Below are positions 2-8,386 of a stretch of 8,386 bases of DNA, one piece after another. Made by a program: the position numbers and the translations under genes. The DNA lies in the IMG/VR virus record IMGVR_UViG_2585427737_000008. One strand, written 5' to 3'. Within the stretch, counting starts at the first letter, position 1, and each line of letters opens with the position of its first letter. The DNA comes from a virus. Its lineage: Duplodnaviria > Heunggongvirae > Uroviricota > Caudoviricetes. Under the pieces are notes generated by a model. That model was not told the DNA's origin. It saw nothing but the letters and a program-made list of their open reading frames with translations, and searched no databases.

Positions 2-1486
2 ATCCGCCCTTCTTCCGTGGTGACCAAAGACTACACCTTTAAACGCCCCGGCTGGGCCGGACGTTTTGATCAGGAAGGCCAGCACCAGGATTACCAGCGC
101 ACACAGTATGAAGTGTATGACTACCCCGGACGTTTCAAGGGGGCCCACGGGCAGAACTTTGCCCGCTGGCAGATGGACGGCTGGCGAAACAATGCAGAAA
201 CCGCGCGGGGAATGAGTCGCTCGCCGGAGATATGGCCGGGACGACGAATTGTGCTGACGGGGCATCCGCAGGCGAACCTGAACCGGGAATGGCAGGTGGT
301 GGCAAGTGAACTGCACGGCGAACAGCCACAGGCGGTGCCAGGACGGCAGGGAGCGGGGACGGCGCTGGAGAACCATTTTGCGGTGATCCCGGCAGACAGA
401 ACATGGCGACCACAGCCGTTGCTGAAACCGCTGGTGGACGGCCCGCAGAGCGCCGTCGTGACGGGACCGGCAGGCGAGGAAATCTTCTGTGATGAACATG
501 GCCGCGTGCGGGGGAAATTTAACTGGGACCGTTATAACCCGTCAAACCAGGACAGTTCATGCTGGATCCGTGTGGCACAGGCGTGGGCAGGCACCGGATT
601 CGGTAACCTGGCGATACCGCGTGTGGGTCAGGAGGTGATTGTGGACTTCCTCAACGGCGATCCGGACCAGCCGATCATTATGGGGCGCACCTACCACCAG
701 GAAAACCGCACACCCGGCAGCCTGCCGGGAACAAAGACGCAGATGACCATTCGTTCGAAAACCTATAAGGGCAGCGGGTTTAATGAACTGAAGTTTGACG
801 ATGCGACAGGGAAAGAACAGGTCTACATCCACGCGCAGAAGAACATGAACACCGAGGTGCTGAATAACCGCACCACTGATGTGATAAACAACCATGCCGA
901 AAAAATAGGTAACAACCAGGCGATCACCGTTACCAATAACCAGATCCAGAACATTGGCGTTAATCAGATACAGACGGTTGGTGTCAACCAGGTGGAAACG
1001 GTGGGCAGTAACCAGATTATCAAAGTGGGATCAAACCAGGTTGAAAAGGTGGGGATCATTCGTGCGCTGACGGTGGGTGTAGCTTACCAGACGACGGTAG
1101 GCGGCATTATGAATACCTCGGTGGCGTTGTTGCAGTCCTCACAGGTAGGGCTGCATAAATCACTGATGGTGGGAATGGGCTACAGCGTCAATGTGGGGAA
1201 TAACGTCACCTTCTCGGTGGGCAAGACGATGAAGGAAAACACCGGACAAACAGCAGTTTATTCTGCCGGTGAGCATCTTGAACTCTGCTGTGGTAAGGCA
1301 AGGCTGGTGCTGACGAAGGACGGAAGCATATTTCTCAACGGTACGCACATTCATCTGGAAGGGGAGTCGGATGTGAACGGTGATGCGCCAGTGATTAACT
1401 GGAACTGTGGTGCCACACAACCTGTACCGGATGCGCCTGTGCCGAAAGATTTACCCCCCGGAATGCCGGATATGCGGCAATTTTGA
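2..1486 (+). CDS. vgrG: VgrG T6SS spike protein, C-terminal ~494 codons (5' end lies upstream of window)
   Basis: Frame is open from the window edge (codons at 2-16 precede the GTG at 17), so the gene is truncated by the window. Translation has VgrG-like motifs (YEVYDYPGRFK, GQEVIVDFLNGDPDQPIIMGRTYH) and a run of VGxNQxxx beta-helix octapeptides; TGA stop at 1484-1486. Family assignment is from memory of VgrG sequences, not a search. Confidence 0.88.
   Translation: MRPSSVVTKDYTFKRPGWAGRFDQEGQHQDYQRTQYEVYDYPGRFKGAHGQNFARWQMDGWRNNAETARGMSRSPEIWPGRRIVLTGHPQANLNREWQVVASELHGEQPQAVPGRQGAGTALENHFAVIPADRTWRPQPLLKPLVDGPQSAVVTGPAGEEIFCDEHGRVRGKFNWDRYNPSNQDSSCWIRVAQAWAGTGFGNLAIPRVGQEVIVDFLNGDPDQPIIMGRTYHQENRTPGSLPGTKTQMTIRSKTYKGSGFNELKFDDATGKEQVYIHAQKNMNTEVLNNRTTDVINNHAEKIGNNQAITVTNNQIQNIGVNQIQTVGVNQVETVGSNQIIKVGSNQVEKVGIIRALTVGVAYQTTVGGIMNTSVALLQSSQVGLHKSLMVGMGYSVNVGNNVTFSVGKTMKENTGQTAVYSAGEHLELCCGKARLVLTKDGSIFLNGTHIHLEGESDVNGDAPVINWNCGATQPVPDAPVPKDLPPGMPDMRQF
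905..1056 (+). repeat. Degenerate tandem ~24-nt repeats encoding the VgrG beta-helix octapeptides (VGxNQxxx)
   Basis: Translation reads IGNNQAIT / VTNNQIQN / IGVNQIQT / VGVNQVET / VGSNQIIK / VGSNQVEK; this is an intragenic coding repeat, not a mobile or regulatory repeat. Confidence 0.6.
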
Positions 1487-1561: not shown

Positions 1562-2956
1562 ATGGGCGGCGGAAAACCGGCGGCGCGGCAGGGTGACATG
1601 ACCCGCAAGGGACTGGATATTGTGCAGGGTTCAGCAGGGGTGCTGATAGGTGCGCCAACCGGTGTGGCCTGCTCGGTGTGTCCCACAAAAAAGGACAGTC
1701 CGAACTATGGCAGCCCGGTGAACCCGCTACTCGGTGCGAAGGTTCTGCCTGTTGAAACCGACCTGGCACTGCCCGGCCCGCTGCCGTTTATTCTTTTCCG
1801 CGCCTACAGCAGCTACCGGACCAGGACGCCCGCGCCAGTGGGCGTGTTTGGTCCCGGCTGGAAAGCGCCCTTCGATATCCGCTTACAGATACGCGATGAA
1901 GGCCTGATACTCAACGACAGCGGTGGTAGGAGCATTCACTTTGAGCCGTTGTTTCCCGGCGAGATAAGCTACAGCCGCAGCGAGTCACTCTGGCTGGCGC
2001 GGGGCGGAGTAGCGGCGCAGCACAGTTCGCAGCCGCTAAGCGCGCTCTGGCAGGTGCTGCCGGAAGATGTTCGCCTGAGTCCGCATGTGTACCTGGCGAC
2101 AAACAGCCTTCAGGGGCCGTGGTGGATACTCAGCTGGCCGGAGCGGGTGCCGGGGGCGGACGAGGTGCTGCCGCCGGAGCCGCCCGCATACCGGGTGCTG
2201 ACGGGCGTGGTGGACGGCTTCGGGCGGACGCTGGCCTTTCACCGGGCGGCGGAGGGTGACGTGGCGGGCGCGGTGACGGGGGTGACGGACGGCGCGGGCC
2301 GCCGTTTTCACCTGGTGCTGACCACACAGGCGCAGCGGGCGGAAGCCTTCCGTAAACAGCGCGCCACGTCTTTATCTTCCCCTGCCGGTCCCCGTTCTGC
2401 TTCCTCTTCTCTGGTTTTCCCCGACACGCTGCCCGCCGGTACAGGATACGGTGCCGATAACGGTATCCGGCTGGAGGCGGTGTGGCTGACACACGACCCG
2501 GCATACCCGGATGAACAGCCGACTGCGCCGCTGGCGCGCTACACGTACACGGCCAGCGGAGAACTGCGGGCGGTGTATGACCGCAGCGGGACGCAGGTTC
2601 GCGGGTTTACTTATGATGCGGAGCACGCCGGGCGGATGGTGGCGCACCATTATGCGGGGAGGCCGGAGAGCCGCTACCGGTATGATGATACCGGTCGGGT
2701 GACGGAGCAGGTCAACCCGGAGGGGCTGGACTACCGCTTTGAGTACGGAGAGAGCCGGGTAATCATCACGGACAGCCTGAACCGGCGGGAGGTGCTGTAC
2801 ACGGAAGGCGAGGGTGGCCTGAAGCGGGTGGTGAAGAAGGAGCATGCCGACGGGAGCATCACCCGCAGCGAGTATGATGAGGCGGGGAGGCTGAAGGCGC
2901 AGACGGATGCGGCGGGGCGGCGGACGGAGTACCGGCTGCATATGGCGTCGGGCTGA
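1562..2956 (+). CDS. Rhs family protein, N-terminal segment (PAAR motif plus first YD-repeat region); upstream half of a split rhs gene
   Basis: 464-aa ORF beginning MGGGKPAARQGD...GSAGVLIGAPTGVACSVCP (literal PAAR motif), closely resembling E. coli Rhs N-termini as I recall them. YD-type repeats (RYRYDDTGR, RSEYDEAGR) appear near the end. Terminates at TGA 2954-2956, whereas intact Rhs proteins continue in this region. Confidence 0.8.
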   Translation: MGGGKPAARQGDMTRKGLDIVQGSAGVLIGAPTGVACSVCPTKKDSPNYGSPVNPLLGAKVLPVETDLALPGPLPFILFRAYSSYRTRTPAPVGVFGPGWKAPFDIRLQIRDEGLILNDSGGRSIHFEPLFPGEISYSRSESLWLARGGVAAQHSSQPLSALWQVLPEDVRLSPHVYLATNSLQGPWWILSWPERVPGADEVLPPEPPAYRVLTGVVDGFGRTLAFHRAAEGDVAGAVTGVTDGAGRRFHLVLTTQAQRAEAFRKQRATSLSSPAGPRSASSSLVFPDTLPAGTGYGADNGIRLEAVWLTHDPAYPDEQPTAPLARYTYTASGELRAVYDRSGTQVRGFTYDAEHAGRMVAHHYAGRPESRYRYDDTGRVTEQVNPEGLDYRFEYGESRVIITDSLNRREVLYTEGEGGLKRVVKKEHADGSITRSEYDEAGRLKAQTDAAGRRTEYRLHMASG

Positions 2957-2960
2957 CTAG

Positions 2961-5789
2961 GTGACGGGGCCGGACGGCAGGACGGTGCGGTATGGCTATA
3001 ACAGCCAGCGGCAGGTGACGTCAGTGACGTACCCGGACGGGCTTCGCAGCAGCCGGGAGTATGATGAGAGGGGAAGGCTGACGGCGGAGACCTCGCGCAG
3101 CGGTGAGACAACGCGGTACAGCTATGATGACCCGGCGAGTGAGCTGCCGACAGGGATACAGGACGCGACGGGCAGTACAAAACAGATGGCATGGAGCCGT
3201 TACGGTCAACTGCTGGCCTTCACGGACTGCTCGGGGTACACGACGCGGTATGAGTACGACCGGTACGGTCAACAAATCGCCGTTCACCGGGAAGAAGGCA
3301 TCAGCACTTACAGCAGTTATAATCCGCGTGGCCAACTGGTCAGTCAGAGGGATGCGCAGGGGCGTGAGACCCGTTATGAGTACAGCGCCGCAGGCGACCT
3401 GACAGCGACGATATCACCGGACGGTAAACGCAGCACCATCGAATATGATAAACGCGGGCGTCCGGTGAGTGTGACGGAAGGCGGACTGACGCGCAGCATG
3501 GGGTATGACGCCGCCGGGCGCATCACCACGCTGACTAATGAGAACGGCAGCCAGTCCACGTTCCTGTATGACCCGGTGGACAGGCTGACGGAGCAGCGCG
3601 GCTTTGATGGCAGGACGCAACGTTACCAGTATGACCTGACCGGAAAACTCACGCAGAGTGAAGACGAGGGACTTATCACCCTCTGGCACTACGATGCGTC
3701 GGACCGCATCACGCACCGGACGGTGAACGGCGACCCGGCGGAGCAGTGGCAGTATGATGAGCACGGGTGGTTAACCACCATCAGCCATACCAGTGAAGGC
3801 CACCGCGTGGCGGTCCACTACGGCTATGACGATAAAGGCCGCCTGACGGGCGAACGGCAGACGGTGGAGAACCCGGAGACGGGGGAGATACTGTGGGAGC
3901 ATGAGACGGGGCATGCATACAGCGAACAGGGGCTGGCGACCCGTCAGGAGCCGGACGGCCTGCCGCCGGTGGAGTGGCTGACGTATGGCAGCGGTTATCT
4001 TGCGGGGATGAAGCTGGGCGGAACGCCACTGGTCGAGTACACGCGGGACCGGCTGCACCGGGAGACGGTGCGCAGCTTCGGCGGGGAGGCCTGTGAACTT
4101 GCCACCGCCTGGAATACCAGCGGCCAGCTACAGAGCAGGCACCTGAACCTTCCGCAGCTTGACTGTGACTATACGTGGAACGATAACGGACAACTAATCC
4201 GCATCAGCGGCCCGCAGGAGAGCCGGGAGTACCGTTACAGCGACACGGGAAGGCTGACGGGCGTCCACACCACGGCGGCGAACCTGGATATCGATATCCC
4301 GTATGCGACGGACCCGGCAGGAAACCGGCTGCCGGACCCGGAACTGCACCCGGACAGCACCCTCACGGCATGGCCGGATAACCGCATCGCGGAAGATGCG
4401 CACTATGTCTACCGCCACGATGAATACGGCAGGCTGGCGGAGAAGACGGACCGCATCCCGGAAGGGGTGATACGGATGCACGACGAGCGGACCCACCACT
4501 ACCACTACGACAGCCAGCACCGCCTGGTGTTCTACACGCGGATACAGCATGGCGAGCCACTGGTCGAGAGCCGCTACCTCTACGACCCGCTGGGACGGCG
4601 AATGGCGAAACGGGTATGGCGGCGGGAGCGTGACCTGACGGGGTGGATGTCGCTGTCGCGTAAACCGGAGGTGACATGGTACGGGTGGGACGGTGACAGG
4701 CTGACGACGATACAGACCGGCACCACGCGTATCCAGACGGTGTACCAGCCGGGGAGCTTCACGCCGCTCCTGAGAATCGAAACAGAGAATGGCGAACAGG
4801 CGAAGGCGCGGCACCGTAGCCTGGCGGAGGTGTTGCAGGAGGACACGGGTGTGACGCTACCGGCGGAGCTGGCGGTGATGCTGGGGAGGCTGGAGCGGGA
4901 ACTGCGCGCGGGAGCGGTGAGTGCGGAGAGTGAGGCATGGCTTGCGCAGTGCGGGCTGACGGCGGAACAGATGGCCGCGCAGATGGAGGCGGAATACATC
5001 CCGGAGAGGAAACTTCATCTTTACCACTGTGACCACCGTGGACTGCCGCAGGCGCTCATCACCCCGGAAGGCGAAACGGCGTGGTGCGGGGAGTATGACG
5101 AGTGGGGGAACCAGCTTAAGGAGGAGACCCCGCATCCCCTGTCCCAGCCGTACCGTTTGCCGGGGCAGCAGTATGATGAGGAGTCGGGACTGTATTACAA
5201 CCGTCACCGGTACTACGATCCGTTGCAGGGGCGGTATATCACCCAGGATCCGATAGGGTTGAAGGGGGGAATAAATCTATACACGTATCCACTGGCACCA
5301 ATACGTTACACTGATCCACTGGGGTTAGAACGAGTTATAAGTGTATATGGGCCTCCCGCTCCAGACCGGGCAGGTGCTGAAACTCCTCTTGTTCTTACTG
5401 ATATGACTGGAGGAGTGACTATTTATTATGATCCTGAAACAGGTGATTCAATGACTTTTGATAGTAGCAATAGAATTGATCGTCGTTCTCAACGTGGTGC
5501 TGGTGATCCATATACAGGTGAAGTCGTTGGTTGTGAGACAAATGAATCAGGAATATCGGCAGCATATGGCACAACGAAGATCTATACTACAGATACTAGA
5601 GCAAGATGGCTACATGGTGGGGGATCATCGTTGCGCGATCCTTATGCTCCTCGACAAGGCTGGAAACCAACTATGGGATGTACCCGTGCACAGAATGAAG
5701 ATGTAGATGAGTTGTGTAAGAAAGTGACAAGTTGGATGTATTCGCATCCTGGAGAGAGAATTAGATATGAACGTTTTAAGACACGTTAA
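2961..5789 (+). CDS. Rhs family protein, YD-repeat shell/core plus polymorphic C-terminal toxin domain; downstream half of the split rhs gene
   Basis: 942-aa ORF in the +1 frame relative to 1562..2956, opening with GTG at 2961 immediately after an in-frame TAG. Numerous YD repeats (RYEYD, RYSYDD, RYQYD), the conserved core end [26 protein letters not shown]...YTDPLGL, then a 153-aa AT-rich C-terminal domain; TAA stop 5787-5789. Whether it is translated independently is unknown. Confidence 0.8.
5328..5786 (+). other. Rhs C-terminal polymorphic toxin domain (Rhs-CT), candidate L,D-transpeptidase-like fold
   Basis: Begins right after DPLGL (5313-5327) and is AT-rich against the GC-rich core. 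Contains WLHGGG, then 22 residues later [19 protein letters not shown], resembling the YkuD pattern H-x(n)-[ST]-x-G-C-x-R-x-x-N-x-D-[IV]-x-x-L. Assignment is by motif recollection only. Confidence 0.4.
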
Positions 5790-6159
5790 TGCGATTAACA
5801 TGGGAGTGTGCATTCTAATTTTGGTTATTGGATGTGCAAATGCTAAAGTTCTTAAACGATGTATATTACCCGCTCCTGATGGTGGCGTAGAAAAACTATC
5901 AAAACCCAACTTACATGGAGTAATTAAAAAAGTTGATTTGAACACAAATGAAGCGGAAATTAAAATAAAAGAGGGGGGGGCAGTGAGTTTTATTTTTAAT
6001 GAGGAAACATTGTATTTTACTGTTTTTGGTGGGGATTTTATTATGGATGATTTAAAAAAAGTAAAAAATACGGAAGCATGGGTATGGTATAAAAATTGCG
6101 ATAGTAAAAATAAAAATGTGGCAGTTGAACTTCTTCAAATCTACGAATTGCATCAATGA
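5767..6159 (+). CDS. Small lipoprotein, putative cognate Rhs immunity protein (RhsI)
   Basis: 130-aa ORF overlapping the rhs 3' end by 23 nt. N-terminus [23 protein letters not shown] has a charged n-region, hydrophobic core and lipobox (VIG|C). AT-rich like the toxin domain; TGA stop 6157-6159. An alternative ATG at 5800 would leave too short a signal peptide. Confidence 0.65.
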
Positions 6160-6337: not shown

Positions 6338-7474
6338 ATGGAACTTAAAAAATTGATGGAACATATTTCTATTATCCCCGATTACAGACAAGCCTGGAAA
6401 GGGGAGCATAAATTATCGGATATTCTACTGTTAACTATTTGTGCCGTTATTTCTGGTGCAGAGGGTTGGGAAGATATAGAGGATTTTGGGGAAACACATC
6501 TCGATTTTTTGAAGCAATATGGTGATTTTGAAAATGGTATTCCTGTTCACGATACCATTGCCAGAGTTGTATCCTGTATCAGTCCTGCAAAATTTCACCA
6601 GTGCTTTATTAACTGGATGCGTGACTGCCATTCTTCAGATGATAAAGACGTCATTGCAATTGATGGAAAAACGCTCCAGCACTCTTATGACAAGAGTCGC
6701 CGCAGGGGAGCGATTCATGTCATTAGTGCGTTCTCAACAATGCACAGTCTGGTCATCGGACAGATCAAGACGGATGAGAAATCTAATGAGATTACAGCTA
6801 TCCCAAAACTTCTTAACATATTGGATATTAAAGGAAAAATCATCACAACTGATGCGATGGGATGCCAGAAAGATATTGCAGAGAAGATACAAAAACAGGG
6901 CGGTGATTATTTATTCGCGGTAAAAGGAAACCAGGGGCGGCTTAATAAAGCCTTTGAGGAAAAATTTCCGCTGAAAGAATTAAATAATCCAGAGCATGAC
7001 AGTTACGCAATCAGTGAAAAGAGTCACGGCAGAGAAGAAATCCGTCTTCATATTGTTTGCGATGCCCCTGATGAACTTATTGATTTCACGTTTGAATGGA
7101 AAGGGCTGAAGAAATTATGCGTGGCAGTCTCCTTTCGGTCCATAATAGCAGAACAAAAGAAAGAACCCGAAATGACGGTCAGATATTATATCAGCTCTGC
7201 TGATTTAACTGCAGAGAAGTTCGCCACAGCGATCCGAAATCACTGGCACGTGGAGAATAAGCTGCACTGGCGCCTGGACGTGGTAATGAATGAAGACGAC
7301 TGCAGAATAAGAAGAGGAAATGCAGCGGAATTATTTTCAGGGATACGGCACATTGCTATTAATATTTTGACGAATGATAAGGTATTCAAGGCAGGGTTAA
7401 GACGTAAGATGCGAAAAGCAGCCATGGACAGGAACTATCTGGCGTCAGTCCTTGCGGGGAGCGGGCTTTCGTAA
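6338..7474 (+). CDS. ISAs1-family transposase (H-repeat-associated protein, YhhI/YdcC/YbfD-like)
   Basis: 378-aa [67 protein letters not shown]..., which matches my recollection of the E. coli H-repeat-associated proteins nearly residue for residue. Strong SD, TAA stop 7472-7474, uninterrupted. Confidence 0.9.
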
Positions 7475-7487
7475 TCTTGCCCTGGGT

Positions 7488-7493
7488 AGGAGG
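7488..7493 (+). promoter_or_regulatory. Shine-Dalgarno (AGGAGG) for the ORF starting at 7504, sitting in the loop of an inverted repeat
   Basis: AGGAGG lies 10 nt upstream of the ATG at 7504, between inverted arms CCCTGG (7480-7485) and CCAGGG (7498-7503). Confidence 0.4.
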
Positions 7494-7503
7494 CCCTCCA
7501 GGG

Positions 7504-7956
7504 ATGTTAGTCGGTGCGGCAGTTGGAGCGGTGGTTATTGGTGGTGGTATAGTAATATACAACAATCGCGAGGCTGTTGGGGATGCGATTGAGAAAAGTA
7601 TGGAGATGCGGGGTGAAGCCGAATTATTAAATGCACAAAGTCAAATGGAATTCTGGCGAGATCCCTATGGTGCTTTTTCCAGCGTGTTTGGAAATGATGA
7701 TTCATCAAAAGAGAATCCAAATGTCGGGAAGGATTTGACGGATGAAGAGAAGAACTGTTTGGGCAGTGGCAGTACAGGAGGTTCGGGAGGGTGGGAGCCA
7801 GATGAGGATGGCGAAATAAGAAATACCTACAGGTCTATTAAGGATGCTCCTCAGTATCCCAGAGGGTTTAGGAATGTCCAAAATGGCACTACAAGGAATG
7901 TTGTAAAGGATCAGCAGTTATTGAAACAATTACGTAAAGTAGATTCAGGAAAATAG
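7504..7956 (+). CDS. Hypothetical membrane-anchored protein; candidate orphan toxin fragment ending at an in-frame TAG
   Basis: The ORF track opens this frame at TTG 7477; I prefer ATG 7504, which has the SD. N-terminus MLVGAAVGAVVIGGGIVIY is a hydrophobic glycine-zipper-like segment, followed by a Gly/Ser-rich linker (GSGSTGGSGGW). AT-rich; stops at TAG 7954-7956 but the frame stays open 39 more codons to TAA 8074-8076. Confidence 0.5.
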   Translation: MLVGAAVGAVVIGGGIVIYNNREAVGDAIEKSMEMRGEAELLNAQSQMEFWRDPYGAFSSVFGNDDSSKENPNVGKDLTDEEKNCLGSGSTGGSGGWEPDEDGEIRNTYRSIKDAPQYPRGFRNVQNGTTRNVVKDQQLLKQLRKVDSGK

Positions 7957-8075
7957 AGTAAAGTTTATAAAGATGGATTTGATGCGTCAGGTCGAAAAGT
8001 GTCCATTCACTATTTTGAAAGTCAGAGTGGTCGAGTATTTAATGTAAAAGTAAAACCTTATTGGAGTAATTTATA

Positions 8076-8386
8076 ATGAGAATTGATTATAGTATTAGCA
8101 ATGAACACGCAGAGAAATTTATCAGTCTTTTAGTGTTGGGTGTTTTATATTCTATTGAAAAAAAGCAATATCTATAGATGAGGCAGAAGGTTTTATATTT
8201 AAGCCATCTACGTCAAAAACATTGAATGCTGCATCGCACTCTAAAAACTTAATTGACATTATAGATTCTGGTTGTGAGCTTGAAGATATATCTAGCATCA
8301 TTCCTGAAAATTTATCAGGTAATATTGATAAATTAATTAACCAGACGCTGGATTTTATTCGAGGTGCTCCTGATTTTGGCGGTGCA
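8076..8386 (+). pseudogene. Putative immunity gene for the upstream orphan toxin, apparently frameshifted at an A7 tract; 3' end beyond window
   Basis: ATG at 8076 overlaps the upstream TAA (TAATG). It encodes only 33 aa (MRIDYSISNEHAEKFISLLVLGVLYSIEKKQYL) before TAG 8175-8177. The +2 frame is open from 8159 to the window end (…AISIDEAEGFIFKPSTSKTLNAASHSKNLIDIIDSGCELEDISSIIPENLSGNIDKLINQTLDFIRGAPDFGGA) with no ATG or GTG start. Adding one A to the A7 run at 8158-8164 fuses the two. Confidence 0.35.

Follow-up and report, generated by a model that had tools for sequence, protein, structure and literature searches.

The window analysed here, the whole stretch of 8,386 nucleotides, carries in order the 3' part of a T6SS vgrG gene, a PAAR-Rhs gene, an ORF of 130 aa, an ISAs1-family (H-repeat) transposase gene, the orphan tip of an Rhs/CdiA-type toxin, and a gene of the DUF3969 family whose reading frame is broken at a run of seven adenines (Table 1). 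The cluster is flanked by T6SS genes and yafV in E. coli 504237 and IAI1, with the start of a second rhs gene 80 nt past the DUF3969 stop. The transposase, which matches Pfam DDE_Tnp_1_assoc and DDE_Tnp_1 and is annotated as ISAs1 in RefSeq, stands between the main Rhs/immunity pair and the orphan module, and truncates the orphan toxin on its 5' side.

Table 1. Features of the window, with positions counted from its first letter.
Feature	Position	Strand	Remarks
T6SS vgrG gene, 3' part	17-1486		
PAAR-Rhs gene	1562-5789		split into 1562-2956 and 2961-5789; TGA 2957-2959
C-terminal tip of main Rhs	~5320-5789		after DPLGL
130-aa ORF	5767-6159		
Second A7 run	6054-6060		TTA AAA AAA GTA, in frame within the 130-aa ORF
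ISAs1-family (H-repeat) transposase gene	6338-7474	+	378-aa ORF
Orphan Rhs/CdiA-type toxin tip	7477-8076	+	C-terminal domain only; TAG 7954-7956, same frame on to TAA 8074-8076
Shine-Dalgarno sequence GGAG	8063-8066	+	9 nt before ATG 8076; anti-SD duplex -5.9 kcal/mol
Zero-frame ORF	8076-8177	+	33 codons, ATG start, TAG 8175-8177
A7 homopolymer, frame-break site	8158-8164	+	in-frame state A8 (or A5)
A_AAA_AAG slippery heptamer (dnaX/IS911 -1 type)	8159-8165	+	zero-frame codons GAA AAA AAG, phase from ATG 8076
Downstream (-1) frame	8159-8386	+	DUF3969 protein residues 29-104; runs off the window
TTG, RefSeq/PGAP start of 64-aa 'DUF3969 family protein'	8222-8224	+	not a credible start

The main PAAR-Rhs gene of the window is itself split. 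Relative to the intact rhs gene of E. coli 504237 it has a net shortfall of 5 nt at 2940-2965, by which EYRLHMASGKLTSVILPDGRTV becomes EYRLHMASG-stop followed by VTGPDGRTV. The best match to the whole window among complete E. coli genomes is 97.8%, and the mismatches are clustered at 2000-2500 and 3000-3500, a distribution that suggests a mosaic Rhs core. The C-terminal tip scores 25.2 bits against Pfam YkuD (cut-off 23.4); as YkuD is an L,D-transpeptidase catalytic domain, the tip may be a Tlde1-like cell-wall toxin. The 130-aa ORF overlaps the tip, has a lipobox-like LVIGC, and probably encodes a periplasmic lipoprotein that serves as the immunity protein of the tip. This ORF is intact and holds the second A7 run of the window, which forms a zero-frame A_AAA_AAA and so offers another place where slippage could occur within an AT-rich immunity gene.

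The orphan toxin tip starts right behind ISAs1, without the end of an Rhs core. Its internal TAG stands at an invariant tryptophan (GKWSKVY in every aligned homologue): a Salmonella homologue reads ...ESGKWSKVYRDGFDASGRK... where the window reads GK-stop-SKVYKDGFDASGRK. The TGG version of the toxin gave exact matches in 0 of 607 E. coli records. Truncated and carrying a fixed nonsense codon, the partner toxin is, to judge from its sequence, dead in all E. coli copies. When full-length 'armed' proteins, Rhs or CdiA, with this tip were sought, the search, limited by its word index, matched only orphans and short ORFs. The tip contains a domain of ~85 aa, I.NTY.SIKDAPQYP.GFR.VQNGT...GKWSKVYKDGYDASG..VSIHYF.S.SG.VF.VKVKP.WSN, which gave no Pfam, NCBIfam or PDB match and is present in Salmonella, Xenorhabdus, Acinetobacter, and one metagenome fragment carrying a PT-HINT domain. 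Recognition of this unclassified partner domain is a modest novelty of the analysis.

The DUF3969 gene begins at the very end of the toxin, its ATG overlapping the toxin stop as TAATG (8074-8078), and has a Shine-Dalgarno sequence of its own; a promoter and terminator scan of 7300-8386 gave nothing informative on the + strand. The same arrangement, a homologous ~85-aa toxin tip followed by a DUF3969 gene, recurs in Salmonella Rhs orphan arrays, in an S. diarizonae array behind cdiA, and in Xenorhabdus. Because it starts at the toxin stop, has its own Shine-Dalgarno sequence and recurs as a pair with this toxin, the gene is a putative orphan immunity gene, a role which the conserved association supports, and the label 'orphan immunity gene' given to it in the first-pass annotation fits its conserved place directly after a homologous toxin tip. 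That DUF3969 belongs with polymorphic-toxin loci, as a probable family of immunity proteins, appears to be new; a literature search (DUF3969/PF13108) found no papers on the family. In S. diarizonae the DUF3969 orphan is followed, a few kb further on, by a Piwi-domain (prokaryotic Argonaute-like) gene and a DpnII/MboI-type gene (9622-11853 of loci L019/L020), so that this array adjoins a defence island.

Read directly from the window letters, the A7 homopolymer stands in the context ...TATTGAAAAAAAGCAAT..., and the codons that start at ATG 8076 approach it as ...TCT ATT GAA AAA AAG CAA TAT CTA TAG. The first-pass annotation correctly described an ORF that stops after 33 codons. Codons 1-30 are the true DUF3969 N-terminus, and codons 31-33 (QYL) together with the TAG are an out-of-frame read-out. 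The -1 frame has a TGA at 8156-8158 and is open from there to the window end; a frame scan agreed with the earlier statement that it lacks any ATG or GTG, the sole start-like codon within 8159-8386 being the TTG at 8222. It had also been claimed that one extra A would fuse the two frames into an ORF of at least 100 codons, and the addition indeed yields ...SIEKKAISIDEAEGF... and an ORF of 104 codons within the window. E. coli IAI1 is identical to the window over 7400-8386 (987 nt, 100%), and its frame stops 30 nt past the window end, which brings the full gene to 113 codons. An A7 run alone is unremarkable, since the window holds two and its shuffles average 1.1; what goes beyond chance is that, on comparison with related proteins, each frame proves to encode half of a single conserved protein.

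The evidence for a single protein comes from both profile and alignment. The fused protein matches Pfam DUF3969 (PF13108) at 69.6 bits (cut-off 25), with residues 10-102 covering profile positions 4-96 of 106 and no break at the junction. Taken by itself the downstream part reaches 56.4 bits, whereas the upstream 33-mer gives no match to DUF3969. Searches of Pfam, NCBIfam and PDB returned nothing besides the DUF3969 match itself, and a PDB sequence search with the protein found no relative. No gaps are needed to align the fused protein with 17 intact homologues, 112-118 aa long, that come from Salmonella, Xenorhabdus and metagenomes. Invariant residues occur both before and after the tract: M1, Y5, F15, L19, L21, G22 and L24 in the upstream frame, and S33, E36, A37, E38, F42 and P44 in the downstream frame, before TTG 8222. 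At the junction the homologues read ...LGVLYSI(K/E)xK(A/V)ISIDEAEGFIFKP..., also written ...KEKAISIDEAE..., and the corresponding peptide specific to the -1 frame of the window is (K)AISIDEAEGFIFK, the zero-frame C-terminus being (K)QYL. A profile search gave 491 family representatives at 50% identity, mostly of ~105-125 aa and matching nearly the whole profile.

All of the diverged homologues are single uninterrupted ORFs, and the split architecture occurs in none of them; in the Salmonella orthologue the tract is interrupted (GAA AAT AAG GTA) and the gene is intact. The comparison with orthologues proposed earlier therefore shows that the frames do not encode unrelated proteins, and the continuous profile match and gap-free alignment identify them, by homology, as one gene split at the A7 tract. 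An AlphaFold model built from a 103-sequence alignment (pLDDT 97) comprises a strand at residues 2-7, a helix at 9-29, five more helices and a strand at 106-111, a predicted fold that amounts to a generic helical bundle only. In this model the upstream frame encodes strand 1 and helix 1, the longest, so the downstream frame alone is predicted to be incapable of making the domain.

The structural argument bears on the possibility that the downstream frame works as a gene of its own, read from TTG 8222, as PGAP annotates it in IAI1 and hundreds of other genomes with a product of 64 aa. This product would be without 49 of the 113 residues; strand 1 and helices 1-2 are among the missing parts, as is the conserved ISIDEAE..F.P motif with the invariant S33, E36, A37, E38, F42 and P44, whereas members of the family are normally near-complete over the profile. 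An anti-SD scan upstream of TTG 8222 found nothing that reaches -3 kcal/mol. Moreover, in genomes with an A6 tract PGAP chooses another TTG and a product of 86 aa, and since the start shifts in this way the annotation is merely that of the longest available ORF. An independent downstream start was rejected on these grounds, the lack of any ATG or GTG in the frame being a further one, and we hold it to be very improbable that the 64-aa product is a gene in its own right. A frame that is broken relative to intact orthologues and has no credible alternative start is that of a frameshift pseudogene; in hundreds of E. coli genomes RefSeq lists this remnant as if it were an ordinary protein, and the locus is properly a frameshifted gene of 113 codons.

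The state of the tract was censused in complete E. coli genomes, of which ~604 of 5426 carry the module, in one to three copies per genome that are at least 99% identical. Queries of 83-86 nt differing only in tract length were used, and records with exact matches were counted; the A7 query has 85 nt and is exact in complete E. coli records including IAI1. A7 accounts for 563 of the 606 records (~93%), A6 for 15, A8 for 2 (~0.3%) and A5 for 1, and the rest differ from the census queries by SNPs. The first-pass annotation had allowed for a homopolymer sequencing error. Homopolymers are error-prone in long-read data, and the deviating assemblies SCU-152 (A8) and LR130532 (A5) do hold other indels, several in the former, which is probably erroneous, and one in the latter. 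An error of sequencing or assembly in the source genome is nonetheless refuted by the exact A7 tract in 563 independent complete records, to which thousands of draft and metagenome blocks are added, and by the complete identity of the window with IAI1 over the region, and its probability is negligible.

Allele-specific products were also counted by contig in a collection of 15 billion proteins. The 33-aa product of A7 was found in at least 999 contigs, the 86-aa product of A6 in 262, the 113-aa product of A8 in 67, the 112-aa product of A5 in 11 and the 113-aa product of a second-site allele in 4; counted as index blocks, the A7 product has 7861 and the A8 product 97, so that A8 makes up ~1% of both combined. 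The exact A8 product thus exists in some E. coli, which corroborates A8 as the in-frame state. Of the two complete A8 records the second, VCSW8, is clean, and clean A8 alleles are present in short-read draft assemblies. Most of the contigs with A5 have indels at other homopolymers too, and are probably read errors. A8 and A7 are both found on at least three common SNP backgrounds (reference-like; 7867G; 7305A+7327A+7867G), which points to recurrent length change or to recombination between alleles. The tract is thus a recurrent slippage hot spot, and the gene is overwhelmingly OFF.

Two observations concern individual restored alleles. In the second-site allele the A7 tract is kept and a T is inserted at 8172/8173 (CT to CTT), 8-9 nt downstream, which restores the frame and alters three residues (AIS to QYL); its sources are one NCBI assembly and three ENA metagenome assemblies. 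GCA_024547425.1 and GCA_024547365.1 are single-contig assemblies of the same project; in each of them the module is present twice, both times as A8 and on different SNP backgrounds. These paired A8 copies could stem from gene conversion, from frame 'repair' as an artefact of polishing, or from a genuine reversion throughout a lineage.

The allele data bear directly on adaptive phase variation, the second mechanism that had been considered at the outset, by which the A tract would toggle the immunity gene between ON (A8/A5) and OFF (A7/A6) at high frequency. Frame-changing lengths from A5 to A8 do all occur in this intragenic repeat, A8 and A7 share SNP backgrounds as would follow from recurrent length change, and the A8 alleles in short-read drafts (L024, L026) are clean. 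Even so, ON and OFF states are not both common, the ON state being confined to the few A8 records given above, one of them doubtful, and to the ~1% of the wider index, while the A5 contigs are for the most part suspect. Seven adenines are short for a contingency tract, and toggling would have no obvious benefit next to a partner toxin that is dead in all copies. In E. coli mutation accumulation, any A7 or A8 run is expected, under neutrality, to be about as polymorphic as all SNPs in the neighbouring kilobase, and the variation observed at the tract roughly equals this expectation. No evidence of selection for switching was found in the allele data. Because the ON state is too rare and the tract too short, the tract is not regarded as a contingency switch, and adaptive phase variation is improbable.

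The lesion coincides with a perfect -1 slippery heptamer, an observation of modest novelty that the first-pass annotation did not make. A ribosome that slips by -1 at A_AAA_AAG reads GCA as its next codon and makes ...EKKAISIDE..., so that the slip is the equivalent of one added DNA base and rebuilds the ancestral ...SIEKKAISIDEAE... protein. A zero-frame heptamer of the form X_XXY_YYZ with a functional continuation in the -1 frame is thus present, as at programmed -1 sites, but neither stimulators nor conservation of the split frame accompany it. An anti-SD scan found no upstream SD-like stimulator at 10-14 nt, the best candidate being GGGUG at -3.7 kcal/mol and 18 nt away, compared with -7.4 kcal/mol for dnaX. 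There is no hairpin at 5-9 nt downstream; the only one starts 13 nt after the heptamer (dG -10 kcal/mol), and among four windows folded its z-score is -2.2 in one chosen window and not significant in larger ones. An Rfam search (E <= 1) gave no match. Nothing supports the A7 heptamer as a programmed frameshift site.

Published efficiencies leave room for some leakage. In E. coli, A_AAA_AAG shifts at ~0.3% when unstimulated and at no more than ~3.7% when its 3' context is the most favourable, and tens of percent are reached only with the stimulators of IS911 or IS3 (PMC4066793). Background on the dnaX heptamer is given together with the case of pDEST17, where in one context frameshifting on AAA-AAA reached as much as 60% (PMC1851650). 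Since there are no stimulators here, a leak of ~0.3-4% is expected, and the frameshift is probably slightly leaky in the sense of corrective frameshifting, by analogy with indels for which this is a recognised class (PMC5009743).

It could be argued from the same facts that A7 has been kept by selection as a 'pseudo-pseudogene', supplying a low but useful amount of full-length immunity protein through -1 frameshifting or perhaps transcriptional slippage. The zero-frame heptamer of the dnaX/IS911 kind has exactly the conserved protein as its -1 product, the Shine-Dalgarno sequence and ATG are retained, A7 dominates among carriers and the remaining ORF is intact; correction of indels by frameshifting is a recognised class, and pDEST17 is a case of high frameshifting on AAA-AAA in one context. 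The heptamer itself, however, is no evidence of selection, because any one-base deletion from GAA AAA AAA GCA produces it automatically. The weak and misplaced SD-like element, the marginal hairpin, the empty Rfam search and the uninterrupted state of all diverged homologues also speak against selected recoding, and A7 is shorter than the ~9 nt at which bacterial transcriptional slippage becomes evident (PMC1088944). Selected recoding is on balance unlikely. The same guarded judgement applies to a two-tier dosage scheme, in which the -1 leak would supply a trickle of DUF3969 protein that blunts a few T6SS/CDI toxin molecules and A8 or second-site revertants would give high expression. If the heptamer did give physiologically useful read-through, the locus would offer a simple case, in a bacterium, of a pseudogene by which the host is still protected.

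The explanation that we consider probable is that A7 is an inherited one-base deletion which disables the DUF3969 gene within a decayed orphan toxin/immunity cassette, behind an ISAs1 element, in an E. coli T6SS vgrG-rhs locus. An ancestral A8 would have become A7 by replication slippage in the Lys-Lys run GAA AAA AAA GCA, an origin suggested by the interrupted run and intact gene of the Salmonella orthologue. The resulting OFF allele, A7, is now the standard one in E. coli, and the tract varies in length recurrently but at low frequency (A5, A6, A8), with occasional further slippage in both directions. The cassette may have spread through E. coli already disabled, its immunity gene being presumably under relaxed selection because its toxin was hardly deployed. 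The deletion would automatically have created A_AAA_AAG in the zero frame, probably with a slight leak, such that ~0.3-4% of ribosomes would shift by -1 and make the full ancestral protein and the others would make the 33-residue peptide.

As for signs of relaxed selection, the partner toxin is dead, the copies are at least 99% identical and thus too little diverged, and the immunity ORF is without a second lesion. Against the pseudogene reading, the fact that the ORF has otherwise stayed intact would also fit a gene that keeps its function, and the in-frame A8 alleles on at least three backgrounds, the A5 allele and the second-site T insertion could reflect selection for restored function. 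Of the possibilities first attached to the slipped-strand frameshift, pseudogenisation is the one favoured by the data; sequencing error has been refuted, and the phase-variable switch is weakly supported by lengths A5-A8 on common SNP backgrounds, set against an ON state of ~0.3% in complete genomes and ~1% in the wider index and a dead toxin. The main value of the result lies in the correct annotation of the locus.

Several known systems resemble the locus in part. Like the contingency genes of Neisseria, Haemophilus and Campylobacter, it has an intragenic mononucleotide run whose length toggles an ORF, but here the tract is short, the ON state amounts to ~1% or less, and E. coli mismatch repair is intact. 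With dnaX and IS911/IS3-type frameshifting it shares the identical zero-frame heptamer and a -1 frame that is the functional continuation; unlike in those systems there is no SD stimulator and no properly spaced stem-loop, the split architecture is not conserved, and the frameshifting expected is the unstimulated 0.3-4%, not ~50%. Homopolymer frameshifts that are leaky or corrected include the G7 tract of herpes simplex virus thymidine kinase, the A8 tract of human apoB and the poly(A) tracts of endosymbionts (PMC5009743, PMC1088944). The present lesion is likewise a homopolymer indel in a coding sequence that could be partly compensated in translation or transcription, although the gene is dispensable here rather than essential and the compensation hypothetical.

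The closest comparison is with the orphan toxin/immunity modules that occur behind rhs and cdiA genes, among them those of E. coli Rhs elements into which an H-repeat (ISAs1) has inserted. Such modules have reportedly been treated by Hill and co-workers, by Jackson et al. in 2009, by Poole et al. in 2011 and by Koskiniemi et al. in 2014. The window agrees with them in its succession of vgrG, PAAR-Rhs, immunity gene, ISAs1, displaced toxin tip and small gene at the toxin stop, and in the recurrence of the toxin-DUF3969 pair in other Rhs and CdiA orphan arrays. It differs in that both members are disabled, the toxin by nonsense codon and truncation and the immunity gene by frameshift, in that the toxin tip is without the core-end homology (DPxGL) used for recombination, and in that the toxin domain and DUF3969 are without prior characterisation in the literature and databases searched. 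As a whole the module is typical of the degenerate orphans that belong to E. coli Rhs elements carrying an inserted H-repeat, and its lesion is a typical homopolymer frameshift, that of an ordinary pseudogene, possibly slightly leaky, and not of a dedicated switch.
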